Source: a bacterium
GTDB taxonomy: Bacteria > UBP6 > UBA1177 > JAGLDR01
Direction: 5' to 3'
DNA length: 51,221 nt
Assembly (NCBI GenBank): GCA_023145475.1
Contig: JAGLDR010000027.1
Location: 1 to 51,221, forward strand
The position numbers and the translations under genes are program-made. A model generated the notes under the pieces. The model was not told the origin of the DNA. It was given only the letters and a program-made list of their open reading frames with translations, and did not search any database. Positions 4,165 to 34,676 of this stretch are shown here, one piece after another (position 1 is the stretch's first letter; each line of letters begins with the position of its first letter).

Positions 4165-5682
4165 CTAGGGTTCAATCAATCTTCCAACATCCATCATCGT
4201 TGACTCCATAAAAACACCCGTTTCTCTGCCATGAAGTGTCGCACACGATTCATAGCCTCCGTCATCATACTCTTCAGGAGTAACAATATATCCCACATAT
4301 CCGTTAGCAAGAGTGAAGAGGAATATCTGATTAAAGCCCCGTATTCTCATCTTTTCTTGCACCAAAAAACCAATAGTTGAAGTCGGCTCACCAGGAACGG
4401 TAAGAATTGCCGTATCGTTGATTTTAATTGCCATAAACTCACCGATAGTTTCAGCAAATGTTGAATCAAGAGGAAGTGGATTAGCCTTCAGAATCATTGC
4501 AAGAGTATCATCACACGCTGAGTAGTTAATAGCGAGTTGTGGCAACTCTTTATATATAGTTTCTGCATGAAATGAGATTGTATCTTCTGTCTTTGTTGTT
4601 TTCCATATATCAGCAATAGAGCTGCTCAATTTTTCACCGACAATCTCAGCTGATGCAAAGCCAACTGTTGTATCTTCCCTCGGACCAACATCCCCCGCGG
4701 CTCCGCTGATAAACATTGCAACAACTCCAGGAAGTTTTGCCTCTAAAGATCGCTCTGTATATCCGACATTGTCTGCGGTAAACTCAAGATTACTCATTCC
4801 AAGCGTTGTTGCGTGTTGTGCAAAGTTATAGATAAGTGCTAATGGTTTGTCATCTATCGTCTCAAACTTAAAAAGAGCAAATTCCTGATTGATAGGAACA
4901 TTTGTATCTCTACGATTCCTAGAAACACCTGTTTCAGTGCCTGTATCAACCCCATACTTAGCGGGAACTTTTGCTGTGTCGGCTGCTTTTATCGATGCAA
5001 CAATGTTTGCAATAACATGGTCATAAACTTCTTGACTAAAATCATCTACCGCGGCAAATTGCCAAAACTTCTTCTCTGTCAAAGCACCAGGACCACTGTG
5101 GGTATGAATTGCCGAGAAGACCATATTTTCTCGTTGTAAACCATTTTCTTTAAGATTAAATACAACGGTATTAATAATACTATTGGTAATTCCAATGGTA
5201 TCAATGCTTACAAATGCTAATTTTTGTGAGGGTTCATCTTTCATTTGAACAACAATTGATTTGACTCGAATGGCATCATGATACCCTGTTCCAGGTCTAA
5301 ATTGATTGCTATAACCCTCTTTCGATGGAAAGGTCTTTCTCCTGTCTACCCCACCATATCCCGCAATCGGAACGCCAGTAAGCGTAATAAGTGGCCTCAC
5401 ATCTGCGCCAACAAGAAAAGGAAATCGCATCACTGCTGGAGTATCAGGCACTTCAGCATTATCTTCATCTTGGTCCTGCATTTCGTCAACGAGAAGAGAA
5501 TCACTATCAACCAGAGGAGCATCGATATCAGGTCTATTTTTGTCCACATCACTCTGCTCAGAATCTTCATCAACTCGGATAGTTTCGGTATCGTCATCAT
5601 TTGCTGAATCTTGAGCAATCTTATCGCCACAACTTATAAAAAACAGCACAACTATCACGGCAAAAAATGTTTTATTTTTCAT
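4165..5682 (-). CDS. Neutral/alkaline ceramidase-family lipoprotein
   Basis: Start reassigned to MKNKTFF at 5682; lipobox FISC; motifs AGYG, SAIHTHSGPG, NFAQHAT, GAAGDVGP, VPGEP, LANGYVGYIVTPEEYDDGGYE. Confidence 0.85.
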   Translation of the reverse strand: MKNKTFFAVIVVLFFISCGDKIAQDSANDDDTETIRVDEDSEQSDVDKNRPDIDAPLVDSDSLLVDEMQDQDEDNAEVPDTPAVMRFPFLVGADVRPLITLTGVPIAGYGGVDRRKTFPSKEGYSNQFRPGTGYHDAIRVKSIVVQMKDEPSQKLAFVSIDTIGITNSIINTVVFNLKENGLQRENMVFSAIHTHSGPGALTEKKFWQFAAVDDFSQEVYDHVIANIVASIKAADTAKVPAKYGVDTGTETGVSRNRRDTNVPINQEFALFKFETIDDKPLALIYNFAQHATTLGMSNLEFTADNVGYTERSLEAKLPGVVAMFISGAAGDVGPREDTTVGFASAEIVGEKLSSSIADIWKTTKTEDTISFHAETIYKELPQLAINYSACDDTLAMILKANPLPLDSTFAETIGEFMAIKINDTAILTVPGEPTSTIGFLVQEKMRIRGFNQIFLFTLANGYVGYIVTPEEYDDGGYESCATLHGRETGVFMESTMMDVGRLIEP

Positions 5683-5729
5683 AGAAAAAGCACCCCTTTC
5701 AAAAACGATACGCCACACGATGCAACATA

Positions 5730-11253: not shown

Positions 11254-12618
11254 TTAATGAGATAAAAAATCGAATTTTTCAGCGGCTTCAATCAGCACTT
11301 TTGCAGCATATTCAATCTGCTCTTTTGTATGCTCTGAGGTAACAAAAAGACGAATCCTCGCCTCACCTTTAGGAACGGCAGGAAAGTTCATCGGCTGACC
11401 ATCAAGCCCGTTGCGTTGCAACCAATCACTCAGCTCAAGGGTTTTGGTCTCATCACCATAGACAACGGGGACAATCCACGATGTTGTGTTAAGAAGGTTA
11501 ACCTTGTCTTGCAGCAGCTCTCTGATAAGTGTTACATTCTCTCTAATTCTCTTGCGTCGTGCATCACCATCTGCACTCCTCCCAAGCTCAAGTGCCTTAT
11601 GTGCAGCACCAATAATAGCCGGAGGAATAGCCGCCGAGAACATCCGACTGCGAGCATACCAGTTTACATATCTTGTTATCTCTTTCCTTGCAATCAGTGT
11701 TCCGCCAACCGAGCAAAATGCTTTAGAAAAGGTAATAATGAAAAGGTCAACTTGATCAAGAACGCCCTGCTCCTCTGCAACACCACGACCGTTTTCCCCA
11801 GCAATCATAATTGAATGAGCTTCATCAACAAGCGAAAATGCATCATATCTTTTTGCCAATTCAACAACGCCTTTGATGTTTCCTCTATCGCCATCTGCAC
11901 TGTAAACGCCCTCAATACAGATAAGTTTTCTTACTTTATCTTTTTCAATCGTTTTGAGAATTCTTTCCAAATCCTCCATATCATTATGCTTAAAAAGACG
12001 CATTTGCGCACCTGAAAGGGCTGCACCCTCCATAAGTGATGCATGTGCGGTCTCATCAAGAATAATATAACTTCCTGGCTTCATAAAAGAAGAGATTGTA
12101 CCAGTATTGACTGCGTATCCCGATGAAAAGAGGCTTATGCCGTGCGTTTTAGTCGAAAAACCCATAAAATCAATCAAAGATTTCTCAAAATCATCGTGAA
12201 GTTGAAATGTTCCACTGATAACAGGAGAACTTGCGGCACCTGTTCCGTATCTTTCAATCGCCGCTTGGGAGGCCTTCTTCACCTCTGGATGATAGCCATA
12301 TCCAAGATAGTTATAGCTTGAGAAGTTGACCATCGTCAACTCTTTCCCATCTTCTCTAATCAGCTCAATCTGCTCTTTTTGCTCATGTTGCCGAGGCGAC
12401 TCAAAGGCATAGAGAGCATTCTCCTGCGCCTTATCAACCCATGCACTGAACTGCTTAATCTCTTGCAAATCGGGAGAGTTTCCAAGGGCAAACATATCAT
12501 AGGTTTGCTTCTTAAAATCTGAGGGTATCTCAGCAACTTGCACCGCTGATGTCTTCTGTTTCTTTTCAAGCATTTTCTTGCGAAGAAGTGCTTTTTTCTC
12601 TGCTAATGATAATGCCAT
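11254..12618 (-). CDS. PLP-dependent alpha-oxoamine synthase (SPT/BioF/KBL family) with N-terminal docking-like extension
   Basis: NFSSYNYLG, FSSGYAVN, AHASL, EGVYSADGD, VDEAHS, ITFSKAF (PLP Lys), ARIRLF; start MALSLAEKK is 1 bp after the PKS stop. Confidence 0.9.
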   Translation of the reverse strand: MALSLAEKKALLRKKMLEKKQKTSAVQVAEIPSDFKKQTYDMFALGNSPDLQEIKQFSAWVDKAQENALYAFESPRQHEQKEQIELIREDGKELTMVNFSSYNYLGYGYHPEVKKASQAAIERYGTGAASSPVISGTFQLHDDFEKSLIDFMGFSTKTHGISLFSSGYAVNTGTISSFMKPGSYIILDETAHASLMEGAALSGAQMRLFKHNDMEDLERILKTIEKDKVRKLICIEGVYSADGDRGNIKGVVELAKRYDAFSLVDEAHSIMIAGENGRGVAEEQGVLDQVDLFIITFSKAFCSVGGTLIARKEITRYVNWYARSRMFSAAIPPAIIGAAHKALELGRSADGDARRKRIRENVTLIRELLQDKVNLLNTTSWIVPVVYGDETKTLELSDWLQRNGLDGQPMNFPAVPKGEARIRLFVTSEHTKEQIEYAAKVLIEAAEKFDFLSH

Positions 12619-12619
12619 C

Positions 12620-15600
12620 CTATTCCCCTTTCTCCTCTTCTGCTGCAAGTAAAGCGTCTATTTCCTCTTCACTCATATCATCAAGAGAGCCAAGAATCTC
12701 ATCCTCTTCTGTGATAATTTTTGGAAGCTGTTGGTCTGCCATCTGCATAATCGTTGGACCGTTCAGCAACTCCATACTGGTTATTGAAAGTCCAAACTCT
12801 GCTTGAATGGTACTACTCAGCTCAAGCGTCATCAATGAATCAACACCGAGGTTACTAATACTTTCGTTCATATCGATTTTGTCTGCTTGAAATTTAAGTA
12901 CGCGGGCAAAAACACCTCGCAACTTTTCAGCAACCAGTGTCAATCTCTCCTCTGGGTCTACAGCGAGCAACTCTTCTGTGAGTGCCGCAAGCTCTTCATT
13001 CAGCTCATCTCCACCGCTATTTTGCTCTGCAAGAATCGCAAAGCGACTCCCCTGTGCAGCGCGAGTGTTTGCCTGAAGCCATGTCGCCCAATTTATATCA
13101 AAAAGACCGACTTGACTCTCTTCTTGATGAGAGAGAATCAAATCAAGTGCATTAAGAACGGTATCGGTTGAGAGTCCATAAATACCTGATGCAGCTAAAA
13201 TATCCTCTAAATCATCATCACGAGAGACAACACCCGTTTCAGATAAAACGCCCCAGTTAATTGTCTGTGCAGGCAGATTAAGAGACTTTCTATACCACGC
13301 AAAGCTATCAAGCCATGCATTTCCCGCAACATAGTTTGCTTGACCGTTGTTTCCAACTAGCGAGGATATTGAACTGAAGTTAACAAAGAAATCGAGTGCA
13401 ATTCCAAGCTCCTGAGTCGCTGTATGAATGTTCCACGCACCCATAATTTTTGGTGTCAACACCTTTTTGAATATATCTCTATCTAAATTGACAAGAAAGC
13501 CATCTTCAAGCACCATCGCACCGTGAAAAACACCTTTAAGTGGCGCTTTTTTACTGTTTGCACGCACGATAACAGCGTGCATCTTTTCACTGTCCGCAAC
13601 ATCAACAGCCTCAACGACAACCTCTGTTCCTCGAGATTCCATCTCAGCTATTGCCTCTTTTGCCTCTGCACTCTTTGCACCACTTCTTGAAAGCAGTGAG
13701 AGACGAGTTGCCCCTGCCTTGCTCAACCAACCAGCAATTGCAAGTCCAAGCCCGCGTGTTCCGCCAGTAATCATATAGGTTGCATCTTCAGCAAGCCACT
13801 CTTTATCTTTATGCACGGTTGCTTCAACATCACAGGTAGTAAAATTGACAATAACCTTACCAATTTGTCGTGATTGTCCAAGAAAACGGAAGGCATCTCC
13901 AATCTCATTTGCTTGAAAAACTTTCACAGGATCTTTGCTGTATGTGCCATTTTCAAAGTTTGTGACAATCTCTTCCATCATCGATTTAATGGTGTCTTGT
14001 CGGTCGTTAAACATACGATCAATATCAATACCCGCAAAGGTGATATTTCGGTTGAAGTTATTCATTGGCAAGCCAGTATTTTCTGTGATATCTTTTTTAC
14101 CAATCTCAACAAAACGGCCATAAGGTGCAAGAAGATAGAAACTTTCAATCATCGTATCACCAGAGATTGCATTGATAACGACATCAACACCCTTACCGCC
14201 AGTATCTCTTTTGATGTGATCTATAAAATCAAGAGAGCGACTATCGTAGACATGCTTAATGCCAAGAGATCTCAAATAGTCTCGTTTTTCGTCGTTTCCA
14301 GCAGTTGCATATATCTCTGCACCTATCTCTTTTGCGACTTGGACAGCAGGAAGACCAACGCCGCCTGTCGCATTGTGAATCAAAATCTTTTCGCCCTTTT
14401 CAAGACGGCCAGCATATTCGATTGCCCGTTTTGCAGTCAAAAAGCCGATAGTATTTGTCGCCTCTTCCATTGTCAAAGTCGACGCTTTAGGAATAACATA
14501 AAAATCAGGAACTGTTGCGTATGTTCTAAAGCCACCACCAACAATTGGTGTTACCACTTCATCCCCTACCTTCCATCTCGTCACCCCTGTACCAACAGCA
14601 ACAACATGGCCAGAGACCTCCATCGCAATTCCATTCCCAAAATAGGTATCTTCGAGTGCTTTTGGATTAATCTGTCCATACACCTTGAGCAAATCTTTAA
14701 AATTAAGAGATGCAGAGTGGATACGAATCTCTATTTCGCCCTCTTGTGGCACGACGCGCTCTGTCTGTCTGAATTCAAAACTATCCAAATTTCCAGGCTG
14801 TGTAATATCGGCAACCAGTGGCATATCTGTTGATACTGTCTCAACAGAAACTGTGGTATCTTCAATTGCACTTCCCACTAAACGGCGAATAAATCTGCGA
14901 GAACCTCTCACAACGATATCTGAATCGCCCTCCTTCGAAAGTGCCTCTTCAACAATGTGAAGAGCATCTGAAAGAGCAGCAATATCAACTGAACGACAAG
15001 TCAACTGTGGATGTTCATTCTCAACAAGTTGCCCAAGTGAGGTCAGCGCAGTTGTTATAAGAGAGAATGAGTCGTCAACTTCAAAAGGCTGTCCATTTTT
15101 TGTAACCGTTGTAATGGTTAACTCTCTGGTAATTTCATTTGCTGCAAATGCTTGAACAGTATAGGTAAGTGGCATTAGAGCATCTGTTATCAACTCAATA
15201 TCGACATCATTCCCGACCTCTTTTGTCGCGGTCAAATCAATGAGCGTATCAAAAGGCTTTGATTTCAACAGTGCAAAAAGCTCTTTAAAACTTTCGGATG
15301 AAACTGCATCAAGAGTAAAAAGAGTATCAGAAACAGCTGCTGTTTTTTCACCCATATCAACACGGTAGAATGAAGTTCCTTTCTGTTTTAGCTCATCGGT
15401 AACAGCTGCGGTCAACGCCTCTTCACCTGCCAAAACAACAACGCCAGAAGAGAGAGCAGCACTCTTATCAAACTTTTTCTCTTCCCACTCTACTGCATAA
15501 ATCAACTTATCAAGTGCACCCTCTTTTGCCTTCTCAGCGCGAGGAATCACTTGACACTTTAAATTGTCAACATGAGCAAGTACAACACCGTTATCATCAA

Positions 15601-18600
15601 CAAGGGTGATATTTCCCCAAATCGCACTCTCTGTCTGCTTAGTTATTTCACCAAAACTGTAACATTTACGCCCAGGAGCTGAAATCAAACTCAACCGATC
15701 GATAGTAACAGGAACAAATGGATCAGAGGAGCCATCATCATCAGAAACAATGGCAATCAGTGATTGAAAAGAGGCATCTAAAATAGTCGGATGAAGTAAA
15801 TACTCACCTTTTGTATCTTCCATCTCTTCGTGTGCTTCAATGCGAGTTAACACCTGTTTGTGGTTGGTATAAATCTCTTTTACTGGTCTAAACCATGGTC
15901 CATAGTTAAGCCCTTGATCATCTAAATCACGATAAAACTTCTCTGCATCAATCTCTGTATTTAACTCAAACTTCAGTTCATCAATTGCGAGCTTCTCAAA
16001 GGGTGTCGTCCGTGACTTCTCAATAATACGCCCTGTTGCGTGAAGCTTCCACGAACCATCTTCATCAAGTCTATCTTTGCTGTGCATCGAAAACTTTTGT
16101 GATTCAGAGTTGAAGCTGCTCATCAACATTGGCAAAGTATTCGGCTGAATTGCAAGCACATTATGAAGTGTAATATCGGTAATAGTTGCGGCAACTTCAC
16201 CAAAAATATTATGATGCATTGCAAGAGCCGCATCACAATATCCAGCACCTGGGAAAATGGTCATTCCATCAACTTTGTGATCAGGAAGATAGGGAAGAAG
16301 ATGTTTGTTTACCTCAACTTGCCATGTTGGATTTGGTGTCCGTAACCACTCGTTAAAATAGATATATCCTGGTCGTCCAAGACGATCCTCTCGTGATCGA
16401 GCACTCTCTTGCCAATAGATATCTCTCTGCCAAGGATAGGAGGGCAAATCAATAAAGTGACCTTTCGTTGGTAACAGTTTTTCCCAATCAGGCGAATGGC
16501 CAATGGTATGCATCGTGCCAAGTGAGGCATAATAGGTATTGCGCTCTTCGAGTTTTCTATTCAGTGTCTGTACGGTTTCAGCTTGTGCTCCAAGCTCTGC
16601 AACCACCTCTTTAATTGAGTTTTTAAGCACTGGATGTGGTCCAACCTCTACAAAATCACAACTTTCAAGATTCGCAAGAATAGAGCGAATACCATCAGCA
16701 AAACGAACACTTCCGCGAGCGTTATGCCACCAGTAATCTGCGGTTATCTCTTTTCCATCTATCATTTTTCCTGTTACGGTCGAATAGAGTGGCGTCGTTG
16801 TTGTCTGTGGTTTTAACTTTTTAAGAACAGAAAAAAGTTCATCGTGAATTGGATCCATATGAGATGAGTGGTAGGCAACCTCAACTTTTAACGCACGGTT
16901 AAAAACGCCTCTCTTATCTAAATTTTCACCAATTTTCTTTAATGATGATTCATTTCCGGAGAGTGTTACCGCTGTCGCACTGTTGATTGCGGCAATCGAA
17001 ACATCATTATATGTGGCTATCTCTGCCATTGCGTCTTGCTCTGAAAGACCAATTGCAATCATTCCACCACCTTGATTTGCCACACTCTGCTGGAGACGGC
17101 TGCGGTGATAACTGACAAGTACACCATCTTCAAGTGAGAGTGCACCCGAAAGATAGGCCGCTGAAACCTCGCCAACACTGTGGCCAATTACTGCATCAGG
17201 CACAACACCGTGTGATTCAAGAAGAGCGGCAATGCCAGCTTGAATAACAAAGTTTGCCGGTTGAGCAATACGAGTTTGAGACATATTTGTTGACTTCTCA
17301 TCCTTCATCATCTCTTCAAGGATAGACCAGCCACTATACTTCTTAAAAAGAGCATCACACTTATCAACAACAGTACGGTAAACATCCTCTGTTTCATAGA
17401 GCTCACGCCCCATATTCCACCACTGAGGACCCATACCTGTACAGACAAAGACAAGTGGTTTTTTATCAAGTGAACTCATCTGAAATGAGACCGCTTTCTC
17501 TGCCATGCCATCTTTTCCGTACGCTTTCAGTGAGGCAATCAAATCCTCTCTTGAGTCAGCAACAATTGCCAAACGGTTTTTATGGTGCGAACGGCGAGTA
17601 CTTACACTATAGACAAAATCTGTCATCGTAACATCTTTATCATTAAGCACATTAACATAGTTTAAAGCCTGCTGACGCAGTGCATCATCGCCCCGTGCGG
17701 AGACAGGAACAAGCCATTTATGCCCATCTTCAAGCGTTACATCAACAGGAGGAATTTCCTCAATCTGAGGCGCTGTTGAAAGCAGTGCATGTGCATTCGT
17801 TCCACCATATCCAAAAGAGTTGACGCTACTATAAACGATACCTTCTGTTGGAAGTGGCTCAGGTTTTACTGGCACTTGCAATCTAATATTTTCAAAATCC
17901 ACTGCTGGATTTGGTGTGTTAAAGTGAATATTAGGCGCAACCACTCGGTGTTTCATCGTAAGAGCGGCTTTGATAATACCCGCAACACCTGCACCAGCTT
18001 CCATATGACCAATATTACTTTTGATTGAGCCAACCCACGCTTTATCATCAACATCACGCACTTCTTGAAAGACTGCGTTTAGTGCATTCAATTCTGCTGG
18101 ATCACCTGCTTTTGTCCCTGTTCCATGTGCTTCAACATAGGCAACATCTTTTGCCGAGACACCTGCTCTTCCATATACTTCACGCACTAACTCTTCCTGT
18201 GCTACTGGGTTTGGCAGTGAAATACCAGCTGTTTGACCATCTTGATTTGCGCCAGTTTCAATAATAACGGCATCCACTCGGTCACCATCTTCAAGCGCCT
18301 TTGCAAGTGGTTTCAGGACGATAAACCCAGCACCTTCAGCGCGGGTATATCCATTTCCTTCACCATCAAATGCTTTACAACGGGCGTGAGTACTTAAAAA
18401 GCCACCTTTACACATCGCAATCGGATAATCAGGCTTTAACATAATGTTTACGCCACCAACAAGTGCCATATCACAGTCACCGTTTCTCAGACTTTGAACG
18501 GCATAGTGCGTTGCAATAACCGATGATGAACAGGCAGTATCCATTGTTACTGCGGGTCCACGCAAGTTGTACATATATGAAATTCTATTGGACATAATAA

Positions 18601-19102
18601 CCATGGTTGAACTGGTTGCTGTGTGAGAATTTATCAAATCTCTATTGAGCTCACCAAGCTGAATTAACTTGTTATCAACCGTAAACCCACCAACAAAAAC
18701 ACCGGTTTTTGAACCGTATATCTTCTCTCTTGTCAAACCAGCATTTTCAAATGCCTCCCACGAAACTTCAAGAAGAAGTTTTTGTTGGGGATCGACAACA
18801 GCAGCCTCACGAGGAGACATCCCAAAAAAGAGTGGGTCGAACTCATCAACTCGCTCTTGAAGAAAGCCACCCTGTTTTACAAACATTTTACCGGGTGCAT
18901 CTTTATCCTCATCAAAGAATTTGCGAATATCCCAACGATCTTCAGGAATATCACGAATTCCATCAACACCATTCAAAAGATTTTGCCACAACTGTTCAGG
19001 ATCTGCTGCACCACCAGGAAAACGGCACCCGATACCGATAATTGCAATTGGCTCCCTTTTGTAGACTGTTTGCTTTGCTGTTTGACTCACTGAGGCCTCC
19101 AT
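12620..19102 (-). CDS. Single-module fully reducing type I PKS, KS-AT-DH-ER-KR-ACP, no TE
   Basis: KS DTACSSS/HGTGT/KSNIGH; AT GHSVG and VEVAYHS; DH HKVDGMTIFP and HPTILDASFQ; ER LIHNATGGVG; KR ITGGTRGLG, VLED, GQANY; ACP LGVDSL. Confidence 0.96.
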   Translation of the reverse strand: MEASVSQTAKQTVYKREPIAIIGIGCRFPGGAADPEQLWQNLLNGVDGIRDIPEDRWDIRKFFDEDKDAPGKMFVKQGGFLQERVDEFDPLFFGMSPREAAVVDPQQKLLLEVSWEAFENAGLTREKIYGSKTGVFVGGFTVDNKLIQLGELNRDLINSHTATSSTMVIMSNRISYMYNLRGPAVTMDTACSSSVIATHYAVQSLRNGDCDMALVGGVNIMLKPDYPIAMCKGGFLSTHARCKAFDGEGNGYTRAEGAGFIVLKPLAKALEDGDRVDAVIIETGANQDGQTAGISLPNPVAQEELVREVYGRAGVSAKDVAYVEAHGTGTKAGDPAELNALNAVFQEVRDVDDKAWVGSIKSNIGHMEAGAGVAGIIKAALTMKHRVVAPNIHFNTPNPAVDFENIRLQVPVKPEPLPTEGIVYSSVNSFGYGGTNAHALLSTAPQIEEIPPVDVTLEDGHKWLVPVSARGDDALRQQALNYVNVLNDKDVTMTDFVYSVSTRRSHHKNRLAIVADSREDLIASLKAYGKDGMAEKAVSFQMSSLDKKPLVFVCTGMGPQWWNMGRELYETEDVYRTVVDKCDALFKKYSGWSILEEMMKDEKSTNMSQTRIAQPANFVIQAGIAALLESHGVVPDAVIGHSVGEVSAAYLSGALSLEDGVLVSYHRSRLQQSVANQGGGMIAIGLSEQDAMAEIATYNDVSIAAINSATAVTLSGNESSLKKIGENLDKRGVFNRALKVEVAYHSSHMDPIHDELFSVLKKLKPQTTTTPLYSTVTGKMIDGKEITADYWWHNARGSVRFADGIRSILANLESCDFVEVGPHPVLKNSIKEVVAELGAQAETVQTLNRKLEERNTYYASLGTMHTIGHSPDWEKLLPTKGHFIDLPSYPWQRDIYWQESARSREDRLGRPGYIYFNEWLRTPNPTWQVEVNKHLLPYLPDHKVDGMTIFPGAGYCDAALAMHHNIFGEVAATITDITLHNVLAIQPNTLPMLMSSFNSESQKFSMHSKDRLDEDGSWKLHATGRIIEKSRTTPFEKLAIDELKFELNTEIDAEKFYRDLDDQGLNYGPWFRPVKEIYTNHKQVLTRIEAHEEMEDTKGEYLLHPTILDASFQSLIAIVSDDDGSSDPFVPVTIDRLSLISAPGRKCYSFGEITKQTESAIWGNITLVDDNGVVLAHVDNLKCQVIPRAEKAKEGALDKLIYAVEWEEKKFDKSAALSSGVVVLAGEEALTAAVTDELKQKGTSFYRVDMGEKTAAVSDTLFTLDAVSSESFKELFALLKSKPFDTLIDLTATKEVGNDVDIELITDALMPLTYTVQAFAANEITRELTITTVTKNGQPFEVDDSFSLITTALTSLGQLVENEHPQLTCRSVDIAALSDALHIVEEALSKEGDSDIVVRGSRRFIRRLVGSAIEDTTVSVETVSTDMPLVADITQPGNLDSFEFRQTERVVPQEGEIEIRIHSASLNFKDLLKVYGQINPKALEDTYFGNGIAMEVSGHVVAVGTGVTRWKVGDEVVTPIVGGGFRTYATVPDFYVIPKASTLTMEEATNTIGFLTAKRAIEYAGRLEKGEKILIHNATGGVGLPAVQVAKEIGAEIYATAGNDEKRDYLRSLGIKHVYDSRSLDFIDHIKRDTGGKGVDVVINAISGDTMIESFYLLAPYGRFVEIGKKDITENTGLPMNNFNRNITFAGIDIDRMFNDRQDTIKSMMEEIVTNFENGTYSKDPVKVFQANEIGDAFRFLGQSRQIGKVIVNFTTCDVEATVHKDKEWLAEDATYMITGGTRGLGLAIAGWLSKAGATRLSLLSRSGAKSAEAKEAIAEMESRGTEVVVEAVDVADSEKMHAVIVRANSKKAPLKGVFHGAMVLEDGFLVNLDRDIFKKVLTPKIMGAWNIHTATQELGIALDFFVNFSSISSLVGNNGQANYVAGNAWLDSFAWYRKSLNLPAQTINWGVLSETGVVSRDDDLEDILAASGIYGLSTDTVLNALDLILSHQEESQVGLFDINWATWLQANTRAAQGSRFAILAEQNSGGDELNEELAALTEELLAVDPEERLTLVAEKLRGVFARVLKFQADKIDMNESISNLGVDSLMTLELSSTIQAEFGLSITSMELLNGPTIMQMADQQLPKIITEEDEILGSLDDMSEEEIDALLAAEEEKGE

Positions 19103-33773: not shown

Positions 33774-34676
33774 TTATCCAATTAATGGACAGTCTTCAGG
33801 GAGAACAAGAGAGATGCTATTAGGTTGCATTGTATAAGAGATTGATTTATTCATTACTGGCTCACCATCAAGGTTTACTGGGATAATTTCACTTCCCTCC
33901 ATCGTAAGTTCTGTACATTGAAAACGATAAATAAATTGAGGTTCTTTTATTACACCACGAAACTCACGGATTACCGTATCTAAATCTTTGATGGTAAAAT
34001 CTCGAAGAAAGAGAACATCCATAAGACCATCGTTAATAAAAGCATGGGGAGCTAAAACCTGCCCGCCACCGGCCTGCCTTCCATTACAGATAGCTCCTAC
34101 AATAATTTCTCTCTCATAGACTTCATCACCAATCTTTATGGAACCTTTATAAGGTTTAAAAGAGGCTGCTTTGAGAATTCCCATTAAAGTATAGGCGCCC
34201 CCACCTAAAAAGTTCTTAAGCTCTACGGGAGTGGAGACTGTAACCTCAGCTCCAAAACCAATTGAGGCAACATTTATGAGAATGGTATTATTTACTTTAA
34301 TGGTATCAATCTCCTCCGCATCACCAGTAAGGGCTAAATTAAGTGCATCAAAAGAGTTGAGAGGAATGGTGCAGGCAGTAGCAAAATCATTGGCAGTGCC
34401 CATGGGTATTATAGCCATCTCTGGTCGCTTTTCTGAAGCAATTGTCAAGAAAGCATCAGCAAGTTCATTCACGGAACCATCACCACCAGCTATAGCAACT
34501 CGTGTTGCACCTTTAGAGACAGCTTCATGAAGAAACCGCTTAACATCTCCCGACTCATAGGTGACTCGAATAGATATATCAAAAGCATCATTCCGATACT
34601 GCATTATTGCATTGCGAAGTATTTGATCAGCAGACTTTTTGCCATTAATAATAAGAAAAAGAGATTTTTTTTTCAT
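33774..34676 (-). CDS. yegS: YegS/DAGK-family lipid kinase
   Basis: IINGK, AGGDGSVNE, PMGTANDFA, NGRQAGGG, NLDGEP. Confidence 0.85.
   Translation of the reverse strand: MKKKSLFLIINGKKSADQILRNAIMQYRNDAFDISIRVTYESGDVKRFLHEAVSKGATRVAIAGGDGSVNELADAFLTIASEKRPEMAIIPMGTANDFATACTIPLNSFDALNLALTGDAEEIDTIKVNNTILINVASIGFGAEVTVSTPVELKNFLGGGAYTLMGILKAASFKPYKGSIKIGDEVYEREIIVGAICNGRQAGGGQVLAPHAFINDGLMDVLFLRDFTIKDLDTVIREFRGVIKEPQFIYRFQCTELTMEGSEIIPVNLDGEPVMNKSISYTMQPNSISLVLPEDCPLIG

Follow-up and report, generated by a model that had tools for sequence, protein, structure and literature searches.

Organization of the PKS-AOS locus

The window, a 51,221-nt stretch of bacterial DNA (assembly GCA_023145475.1, contig JAGLDR010000027.1), carries a polyketide synthase (PKS) gene and an alpha-oxoamine synthase (AOS) gene in direct succession, flanked by yajC-secD-secF and a DUF285 gene (Table 1). 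The PKS has the domain order KS-AT-DH-(pseudo-KR)-ER-KR-ACP, with neither a TE nor an MT domain detected by Pfam, and its catalytic motifs are intact (DTACSS, HGTGT, KSNIGH, GHSVG, VAYHS, DH His942/Asp, KR LEDG and Tyr, LGVDSL). Its stop codon (TAG, 12622-12620) is separated by a single G from the AOS ATG at 12618; AGGGG (12629-12625), 6 nt ahead of this ATG, and GAGGAG (12637-12632) lie within the end codons of the PKS and make a plausible ribosome-binding site, through which translation of the AOS is likely to be coupled to that of the PKS. A TTG at 12648 was rejected as the AOS start, because the closest homologue starts at the same Met as annotated.

Table 1. Coordinates of features at the PKS-AOS locus
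Feature	Position	Strand	Extent and basis
PKS gene	12620..19102	−	2160 aa; single-module reducing type I PKS; Pfam and motif check
ACP domain of the PKS	12734..12928	−	PKS residues 2059-2123; PF00550
Acidic C-terminal tail, putative C-terminal docking domain	12629..12712	−	PKS residues 2131-2158; AF2, conservation, PaxA match
Putative Shine-Dalgarno-like motifs in final PKS codons	12625..12637	−	Sequence
AOS gene	11254..12618	−	454 aa; PLP fold type I; Pfam/NCBIfam, structure match
Basic N-terminal helix, putative N-terminal docking domain	12550..12618	−	AOS residues 1-23; AF2, conservation
Flexible linker, helix to catalytic body	12514..12549	−	AOS residues 24-35; pLDDT <50 at 25-30; without conservation

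The AOS has H192, D265, H268 and K299, and its nearest solved structure is S. multivorum SPT (33% identity, TM 0.82/0.94), in which an Arg takes the place of P132; it falls below the cut-off of every Pfam and NCBIfam family model (SPT models, 293 versus 640 bits). A TE-less, fully reducing single-module PKS beside an AOS with an intact PLP site is the arrangement of SgaA and SgaB from Pseudomonas fluorescens MYb115, an iterative type I PKS and an AOS that is a proven SPT (PMC12134224), and SgaA/SgaB(/SgaC) and the wcb/rkp PKS clusters likewise hold the two enzymes as a two-gene unit. SgaB, however, belongs to a different AOS subfamily and, unlike in SgaAB, no KDS reductase or capsule genes adjoin the pair in the window; the SDRs of related loci find nothing closer in the genome than SDRs of 24-35% identity, which lie on other contigs.

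The PKS would repeatedly extend and fully reduce an acyl chain which, with no TE present, the AOS would take off the ACP and condense with an amino acid, most likely serine, to give a 3-ketosphinganine-like long-chain amino-ketone. The product is uncertain because of the missing reductase neighbour, the sub-threshold SPT models and the replacement of Arg by P132. Fungal HR-PKS/AOS pairs such as Fum1/Fum8 and SphB/SphA also use a stand-alone AOS to release the polyketide from a TE-less PKS. The same holds for the reduced polyketide of MyrB/MyrA, but the accessible part of that report does not mention terminal docking helices such as those described below (PMC13612406).

Terminal elements of the two proteins

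In its AF2 model the AOS opens with a basic helix (residues 5-23, net charge +6), which lies well outside the region where solved AOS/SPT chains align, none of them earlier than residue 53; K8 and K9 are Lys or Arg in 36 of 36 aligned extensions. The PKS ends in an acidic tail (net charge −13 over residues 2131-2160), predicted at a pLDDT of about 60 to form a helix (2132-2141), a turn and a second helix (2145-2158). Alignment of 12 tails places the conserved core at 2131-2152, and the terminal residues EEKGE, which overlap the putative ribosome-binding site, are not conserved. An earlier, sequence-only reading of this DNA is borne out in its claim that a basic helix precedes the catalytic fold and, for a plausible site, in its claim that the AOS ribosome-binding site lies inside the PKS tail; its acidic helix at the PKS end is correct in place and character, except that two helices are predicted, the first of which (E2132-D2141) starts at 12709, just beyond the range that had been assigned (12555..12695).

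Profiles of tail and helix, built from homologues with the window's own rows included, were run against the 3738 reading frames of the genome. The PKS is the sole frame with a tail score of at least 15 bits (81.3; next, 12.6), and the AOS ranks first of two for the N-terminal helix (37.5 bits; next, 15.3).

Resemblance to docking domains

Docking domains are known for ordering the subunits of assembly lines. In the PaxA T1-CDD/PaxB NDD pair of the Xenorhabdus PAX NRPS (PDB 7B2B, PMC8251938), regarded as type 2-related (PMC11221535), an acidic two-helix carrier C-terminus is matched with a basic N-terminal helix, as in the window. PaxA E1060/E1061, I1064, L1068 and F1071 map to PKS E2132/E2133, I2136, L2140 and M2143, and L1076, I1079, Y1080 and E1084 to I2148, L2151, L2152 and E2156; PaxB L9, L11, E13, R14, K15, L17 and L18 map to AOS L3, L5, E7, K8, K9, L11 and L12, whereas PaxB R16, L20, A21 and K22 have no matching equivalents. 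Double mutation of PaxB R14/K15 abolishes binding (PMC8251938), and these residues correspond to the two fully conserved basic positions of the AOS; with Asp or Glu in 92% of tails at E2132 and in 75% at E2133, an acidic/basic pair of the PaxA/PaxB type is present at the sequence level. The tail agrees with PaxA in 9 of 12 interface classes, a level reached by 7 of 1644 C-termini; the helix matches 6 of 13 PaxB classes, equal to the background mode of 6 (mode 8 among helix-bearing homologues, 6 among helix-less ones).

The two systems also differ. The N-terminal partner is a PLP enzyme in the window and a C domain in PaxB, and the first tail helix is predicted to stand separately right after ACP helix 4, whereas that of PaxA is an extension of helix 4. 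Moreover, the AOS lacks the first NDD helix of PaxB (L6) and its Pro kink, having a single AF2-predicted helix that begins at the T7 equivalent; a hydrophobic L6 equivalent is found in 23 of 38 homologues, and deletion of the first PaxB helix abolished binding in that system (PMC8251938).

Type 2 CDDs carry hydrophobic residues at i, i+3, i+8 and i+12 (PMC11221535), occupied in the tail by L2140, M2143, I2148 and L2152, and all four positions are hydrophobic in 12 of 12 tails. As in type 2-related CDDs, the carrier domain is immediately followed by a predicted pair of helices. The same spacing and a two-helix CDD occur in PaxB CDD/PaxC NDD (3HBa, PDB 6TRP) and in the class 2 pairs CurG/H, CurK/L and Bamb_5925/5924, and PaxC and CurL have a single-helix NDD like that of the AOS. 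These pairs, in contrast, have an acidic residue before the first hydrophobic one, where the window has Ser (Asp/Glu in 42% of tails), and in a hand-picked, ambiguous register the AOS family fits the PaxC NDD pattern (L8, L11, V15, L16, K19, R23) at positions 11, 15, 16 and 19 but not at 8 and 23.

Neither profiles nor single sequences of the helix and the tail retrieved a solved docking domain from the PDB at E<=10, and Foldseek with the ACP-tail model gave ACPs only among the matches listed. The ESM Atlas yielded nothing for the helix and, for the tail, only a sub-threshold lead to PF09277 clusters (0.78). A predicted complex between the AOS dimer and the tail (40 residues) scored 0.06 against a mark of 0.32, in a job unlike the calibration and with controls not folded, and counts neither for nor against docking.

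Co-occurrence of helix and tail

In 83 related loci, helix and tail were each counted as present from a score of >=15 bits, using a tail profile free of rows from any locus and a helix profile stripped of the five rows found in the loci. The helix occurs on 8 of the 83 AOSs, six of which have the tail directly upstream, one a shortened tail and one no tail; the six tails end 127-231 bp ahead of the AOS core, and in each tail locus the gene that comes next is the AOS. None of the 75 helix-less loci has a tail (all at or below 7.1 bits); 31 of them hold a free ACP that is likewise tail-less, and their KS/AT matches are all separate ORFs of at most 490 aa. Counted as 90% clusters with at least 300 bp upstream, whose members as kin are not independent, six have both elements, two the helix only, none the tail only and 38 neither. 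These counts draw on only six tail loci with DNA context, in three of which the contig breaks off inside the ACP or shortly before it; sampling of further genomes yielded 2 of 39 in the window's own phylum (its genome included), then 1/401, 0/401 and 0/301. A search of 1.84 billion representatives with the helix profile, which is too short to be an informative query, gave three matches: one repeat protein and two fragments, one from the family and one of 91 aa.

Natural ACP-AOS fusions (P0113, P0157, P0158, L095), at four separate positions in the AOS tree, have neither helix nor tail, and the helix label requires 14 changes on that tree, at least seven of them forced by starred branches. The sequence-only reading had asked whether the extension is confined to PKS-linked homologues, which is not strictly the case: in L132 the helix-bearing AOS comes after an ACP that stands free and has a one-helix tail, and a weaker copy of about 18 bits is carried by the AOS of L127/P0055 (the P0055 cluster has five full-length members at >=90% identity) and genome G276, the one instance of an outcome that the same reading had named as refuting docking, the extension on an AOS that lacks a PKS. 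G276 contains no type I PKS and no tail, its three ACPs being tail-less; weak tail matches there were rejected as lying inside PAS/HD-type signalling proteins. The plasmid PKS-AOS pairs L192, L194 and L195 (about 33% identity) have no such tail either, so PKS-AOS pairs as a whole do not depend on this kind of docking.

The AOSs of L081-083/P0011, counted as helix-negative, have a Lys-rich N-terminus (5.6-6.4 bits), possibly a decayed copy of the helix, and a patatin gene adjoins them.

Probable docking of the AOS and alternative explanations

Since helix and tail are mostly kept or lost together, they likely dock the AOS to the PKS: we consider it probable that they form a type 2-related, PAX-like pair holding the AOS by the ACP of a likely iterative, AOS-released PKS. 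The earlier proposal of a physically docked release enzyme thus gains substantially, on comparative grounds, from the co-occurrence, the joint absence in fusions and free-ACP clusters and the tail-PaxA match, and is tempered by its inferential nature and the G276 exception. If the contacts follow those of PaxA/PaxB, E2132/E2133 would face K9/K8, while I2136, L2140, M2143, I2148, L2151 and L2152 would pack on L3, L5, L11, L12 and M16; avidity would be added by the probable dimeric state of both enzymes. As part of this explanation, the AOS family likely couples to its carrier in three ways, by a docking pair, by covalent fusion or with a tail-less free type II ACP.

The best alternative, though unlikely, takes the helices for remnants of an inherited docking pair or for helpers of marginal effect, with the AOS reading the ACP surface directly, as BioF does, and translational coupling doing the rest. 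A model of MyrB/MyrA shows such direct contact on the ACP surface, and so does a solved BioF-ACP structure (PDB 8DLE), according to the accessible part of PMC13612406; the G276 helix without partner, the tail-less distant pairs and the missing first PaxB helix would all suit a remnant. A remnant would not be expected, however, to hold its hydrophobic and charge pattern, as helix and tail do across AOSs about 50% identical beside an unconserved linker, nor both to be missing from four separate fusions and from free-ACP clades. The BioF complex also bears on the earlier statement that stand-alone SPT/BioF proteins are not docked: the helix is indeed absent from 77 of 77 distant AOS-family loci (at most 2.9 bits), but BioF binds its ACP directly, so the contrast was drawn too sharply.

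A role of the basic helix for the AOS only, in anionic membrane or product binding or in self-association, with the tail acting otherwise, for instance in PKS dimerisation, appears improbable. A +6 helix on a flexible linker, a lipid-like expected product and a G276 helix that would then require no partner agree with this, but the window's helix has a low hydrophobic moment (0.12), and neither the lack of any tail without a helix (0/75 loci) nor the loss of both elements in fusions is explained. Least probable is a tail that docks a protein other than the AOS, such as a further PKS subunit or some tailoring enzyme: motifs similar to its second helix also end the unrelated PKS/NRPS proteins P0133, P0138 and P0137 (14.8, 11.2 and 10.4 bits), the PpsC tail aligns with it and a PfaA-like multi-ACP protein lies on contig C72 of the same genome, but no other frame of that genome comes near the AOS in its helix score, the AOS gene adjoins every tail, and the PKS's own N-terminus scores −1.3 on the helix profile.

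Docking of the AOS, if true, would show how a TE-less iterative PKS recruits its off-loader and would provide a handle of about 25 residues by which enzymes that form amino-ketones could be attached to engineered PKSs; it makes the AOS family a natural experiment in docked, fused and free-ACP coupling and hints at sphingolipid-like lipids across scattered uncultured lineages. The SgaAB-like gene pair and the docking type are each known already, and their combination was not found in the literature; a docking domain on an AOS or SPT was likewise not found in the largely open-access literature searched, although an earlier mention elsewhere is possible, and the word 'docking' is absent from the main text of the SgaAB paper (PMC12134224), of whose 20 supplementary files 12 were covered.

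More tentatively, an iterative PKS may have come to hold its stand-alone PLP release enzyme through docking domains taken over from assembly lines, as a portable, repeatedly lost module that fusion or a type II ACP in free form could replace and whose affinity would set the timing of chain release. The SgaB N-terminus would be an unrecognised instance of this module, and the principle would then reach many bacterial clusters for sphingolipids built by PKS and SPT. In the Pseudomonas plasmid pair L194 the AOS (35% identical, 7 bits on the helix profile) has an SgaB-like start but no matching tail accompanies it, and SgaB itself, read by eye (Fig. S6 of the SgaAB paper), also starts with a basic helix-like stretch, LSVGIKQRLIQQALERRR.

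The PKS–AOS gene pair

The PKS, the only one of its kind found in this genome, has the domain order KS-AT-DH-ER-KR-ACP with all catalytic motifs intact (the ER motif being read directly at residues 1574-1584), and neither a thioesterase nor a methyltransferase was found in its ORF. The adjoining α-oxoamine synthase (AOS) retains H192, D265, H268 and K299, reaches the cut-off of no NCBIfam model and is closest among solved structures to S. multivorum serine palmitoyltransferase (SPT; 33% identity, with the alignment beginning at AOS residue 53). The acidic peptide closing the PKS and the basic one opening the AOS, both described in the sequence-only reading, are present and encoded on the minus strand; as that reading also stated, the putative AOS ribosome-binding site lies within the PKS end, with AGGGG and GAGGAG located 6 and 13 nt upstream of the ATG in the last PKS codons. 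The pair is flanked by yajC-secD-secF-recJ and a DUF285 gene; since the AOS family was found in 2 of 39 genomes from the phylum, its history suggests transfer or frequent loss. AOS P132, invariant in 76 family members, stands where the SPT has the Arg of its G-S-R motif and may bear on substrate choice.

Anatomy of the helix and tail

In AF2 models, a helix (residues 5-23) precedes the well-folded body of the AOS, the linker between them being modelled with low confidence (pLDDT <50 at 25-30), and the PKS tail forms helices 2132-2141 and 2145-2158 directly after the last ACP helix (pLDDT near 60). I2136, L2140, M2143, I2148, L2151 and L2152 are hydrophobic in every one of 12 tails, 92% and 75% of which are acidic at E2132 and E2133, respectively; conservation spans 2131-2152 and does not include the terminal EEKGE, whose sequence may be shaped by the overlapping Shine-Dalgarno-like site. 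Across 36 AOS extensions, chosen by eye so that percentages describe the motif and not its frequency, K8 and K9 are always K/R, positions 3, 5, 11, 15 and 16 are hydrophobic in 86-100%, and the linker is not conserved. Among the 120 family proteins listed, 46 score at least 15 bits with the helix profile, which was itself built from most of the helix-bearing rows.

Co-occurrence of helix and tail

Co-occurrence was assessed over 83 loci of AOS relatives (L001-003 and L081-160; 51 clusters at 90% and 25 at 75%), using a tail profile built from the window plus five proteins that have no locus, and a helix profile excluding the five rows that occur in loci. Eight AOSs carry the helix at ≥15 bits, and six of their loci (L001, L094, L096, L110, L120 and L139) also have the tail at ≥15 bits, ending 127-231 bp upstream of the AOS core and preceded by KR-ACP (three), an ACP on a cut contig (two) or an ACP end alone (one); the L001 genome contains an entire PKS split over two contigs. 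Of the remaining two, L127 has no tail and L132 has one of a single helix (6.2 bits), carried by a free-standing ACP of 105 aa. None of the 75 helix-less loci, six of which have <300 bp upstream, exceeds 7.1 bits for the tail. Counted as both/helix only/tail only/neither, and leaving out L095, a fusion, as well as six short loci, clusters number 6/2/0/38 at 90% and 5/2/0/16 at 75%; because relatives are non-independent, we give the Fisher p no weight. As controls, the helix was found in 0/77 distant AOS loci, and among 3738 frames of the window's genome the tail occurs in one and the helix (≥15 bits) in two.

Both elements are absent from four natural ACP-AOS fusions (P0113, L095, P0157 and P0158), the last of which, KR-ACP-AOS, has a Pro/Ala-rich linker in their place. 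In a rapid ML tree built from 175 cores (omitting P0008, P0035, L085, L126 and 90%-redundant loci), the fusions lie at four separate points and the helix requires 14 changes, at least seven of them forced by starred branches. Equal-sized contigs, rather than direct observation, suggest three further PKS-AOS pairs (P0123/P0003, P0124/P0007 and P0127/P0068).

A tail-less free ACP with discrete KS and AT genes occurs in 31 helix-less loci, and several of the scanned helix-less free-ACP loci contain HMG-CoA synthase, ECH and SDR genes. Free ACP and KS type II clusters surround the AOSs of L084, L113, L124, L137, L002 and L003, several with HMG-CoA synthase and enoyl-CoA hydratases in a β-branching-like cassette, their gene content suggesting branched long-chain amino-ketones as possible products.

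The sequence-only reading, which paired tail and helix as docking partners, had named a helix-bearing AOS without a PKS as an observation that would refute the pairing. One such case exists, in genome G276. This AOS (helix ~18 bits) resembles at its start and end that of L127, whose core is identical to that of P0055, named by sources as Ca. Jettenia. KS matches in G276, which has many FabF paralogues, are all FabF-sized or weak, and no tail was found there, its three ACPs being tail-less. By eye, the surroundings include transposase-like and CRISPR-like ORFs; this AOS may be an orphan. The radical SAM gene downstream is intact in L166; in L127 its ORF passes into sequence of ribosomal protein S12 where the contig ends, which probably reflects a chimeric assembly. 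The tail is also absent from plasmid PKS-AOS pairs L192, L194 and L195 (~33% identical to the window's pair).

Comparison with known docking domains

The tail has the hydrophobics at i, i+3, i+8 and i+12 that define type 2-related C-terminal docking domains in PMC9113145 and PMC11221535, and at the sequence level tail and helix behave like such a pair. In PaxA/PaxB (PMC8251938; also PMC7973640), E1060/E1061 bind K15/R14, and R14E/K15E abolishes binding; these residues correspond to PKS E2132/E2133 and AOS K9/K8. At a single offset the tail matches 9/12 PaxA interface classes, as do 7/1644 C-termini of the genome, tail included, whereas the AOS helix matches 6/13 PaxB classes, equal to background. 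The AOS lacks the first PaxB helix, deletion of which abolished binding in that system (PMC8251938); this is compatible with docking because PaxC and CurL function with a single helix. Strictly defined, the pair falls outside the PaxA/PaxB subtype, and profile searches with helix and tail retrieved no solved docking domain.

Proposed mechanism and product

Taken together, we consider it reasonably probable that the AOS docks to the PKS through tail and helix. Most likely, the PKS would make a saturated acyl chain iteratively, the tail would capture the AOS helix, the flexible linker would give the acyl-ACP access to the PLP site, and the chain would leave as a long-chain amino-ketone by decarboxylative condensation with an amino acid. 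PKS-AOS gene pairs and this docking class are each already known; the literature searched, which covers only a minority of subscription papers, contained no docking pair attached to a stand-alone PLP release enzyme. The wcb/rkp PKS clusters include an AOS gene. These clusters are described in PMC3908369. The chemistry proposed here was demonstrated, with serine, for SgaAB of Pseudomonas fluorescens MYb115 (PMC12134224). By eye, SgaB (Fig. S6 therein) has a similar basic N-terminal stretch, but a Pseudomonas plasmid AOS with an SgaB-like start scores just 7 bits on the helix profile and its PKS tail differs. No KDS reductase adjoins the window's pair.

Other genes

A family without Pfam match lies downstream of the AOS in 11/11 candidate loci compared, helix present or not; no member turned up in the genome from which the window comes.

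Coordinates of the gene pair, related loci and other genes
Feature	Coordinates	Strand	Remark
PKS ORF, 2160 aa	19102-12620	minus	stop TAG
AOS ORF, 454 aa	12618-11254	minus	ATG one base past PKS TAG
AOS P132 codon	12223-12225	minus	
Helix-bearing AOS without PKS (G276)	L166:9957-11324		upstream of B12-binding radical SAM gene
Helix-bearing AOS without PKS	L127:9971-11341		upstream of B12-binding radical SAM gene
Radical SAM/S12 ORF	L127:11693-13506		
~230-280 aa family	L003:11275-12009		
~230-280 aa family	L084:9073-9912		
~230-280 aa family	L094:1585-2085		
~230-280 aa family	L096:1837-3105 (N-part)		fused to aminotransferase class III
~230-280 aa family	L119:11300-12004		
~230-280 aa family	L120:1833-2354		
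~230-280 aa family	L132:1836-2588		
~230-280 aa family	L137:11245-11964		
~230-280 aa family	L141:11280-11969		
~230-280 aa family	L143:5062-5751		
~230-280 aa family	L146:11264-11953		
Neutral/alkaline ceramidase homologue (PF04734)	4165-5718	minus	E 1.5e-36, below NCBIfam cut-off; same strand as AOS, 5.5 kb downstream
YegS/DAGK-like kinase	33774-34676		
α2-Macroglobulin-family protein, 1646 aa	24299-29239	plus	TED and receptor-binding domains
PfaA-like KS-AT-multi-ACP protein	contig C72, 18955-23841		elsewhere in the window's genome (G000)
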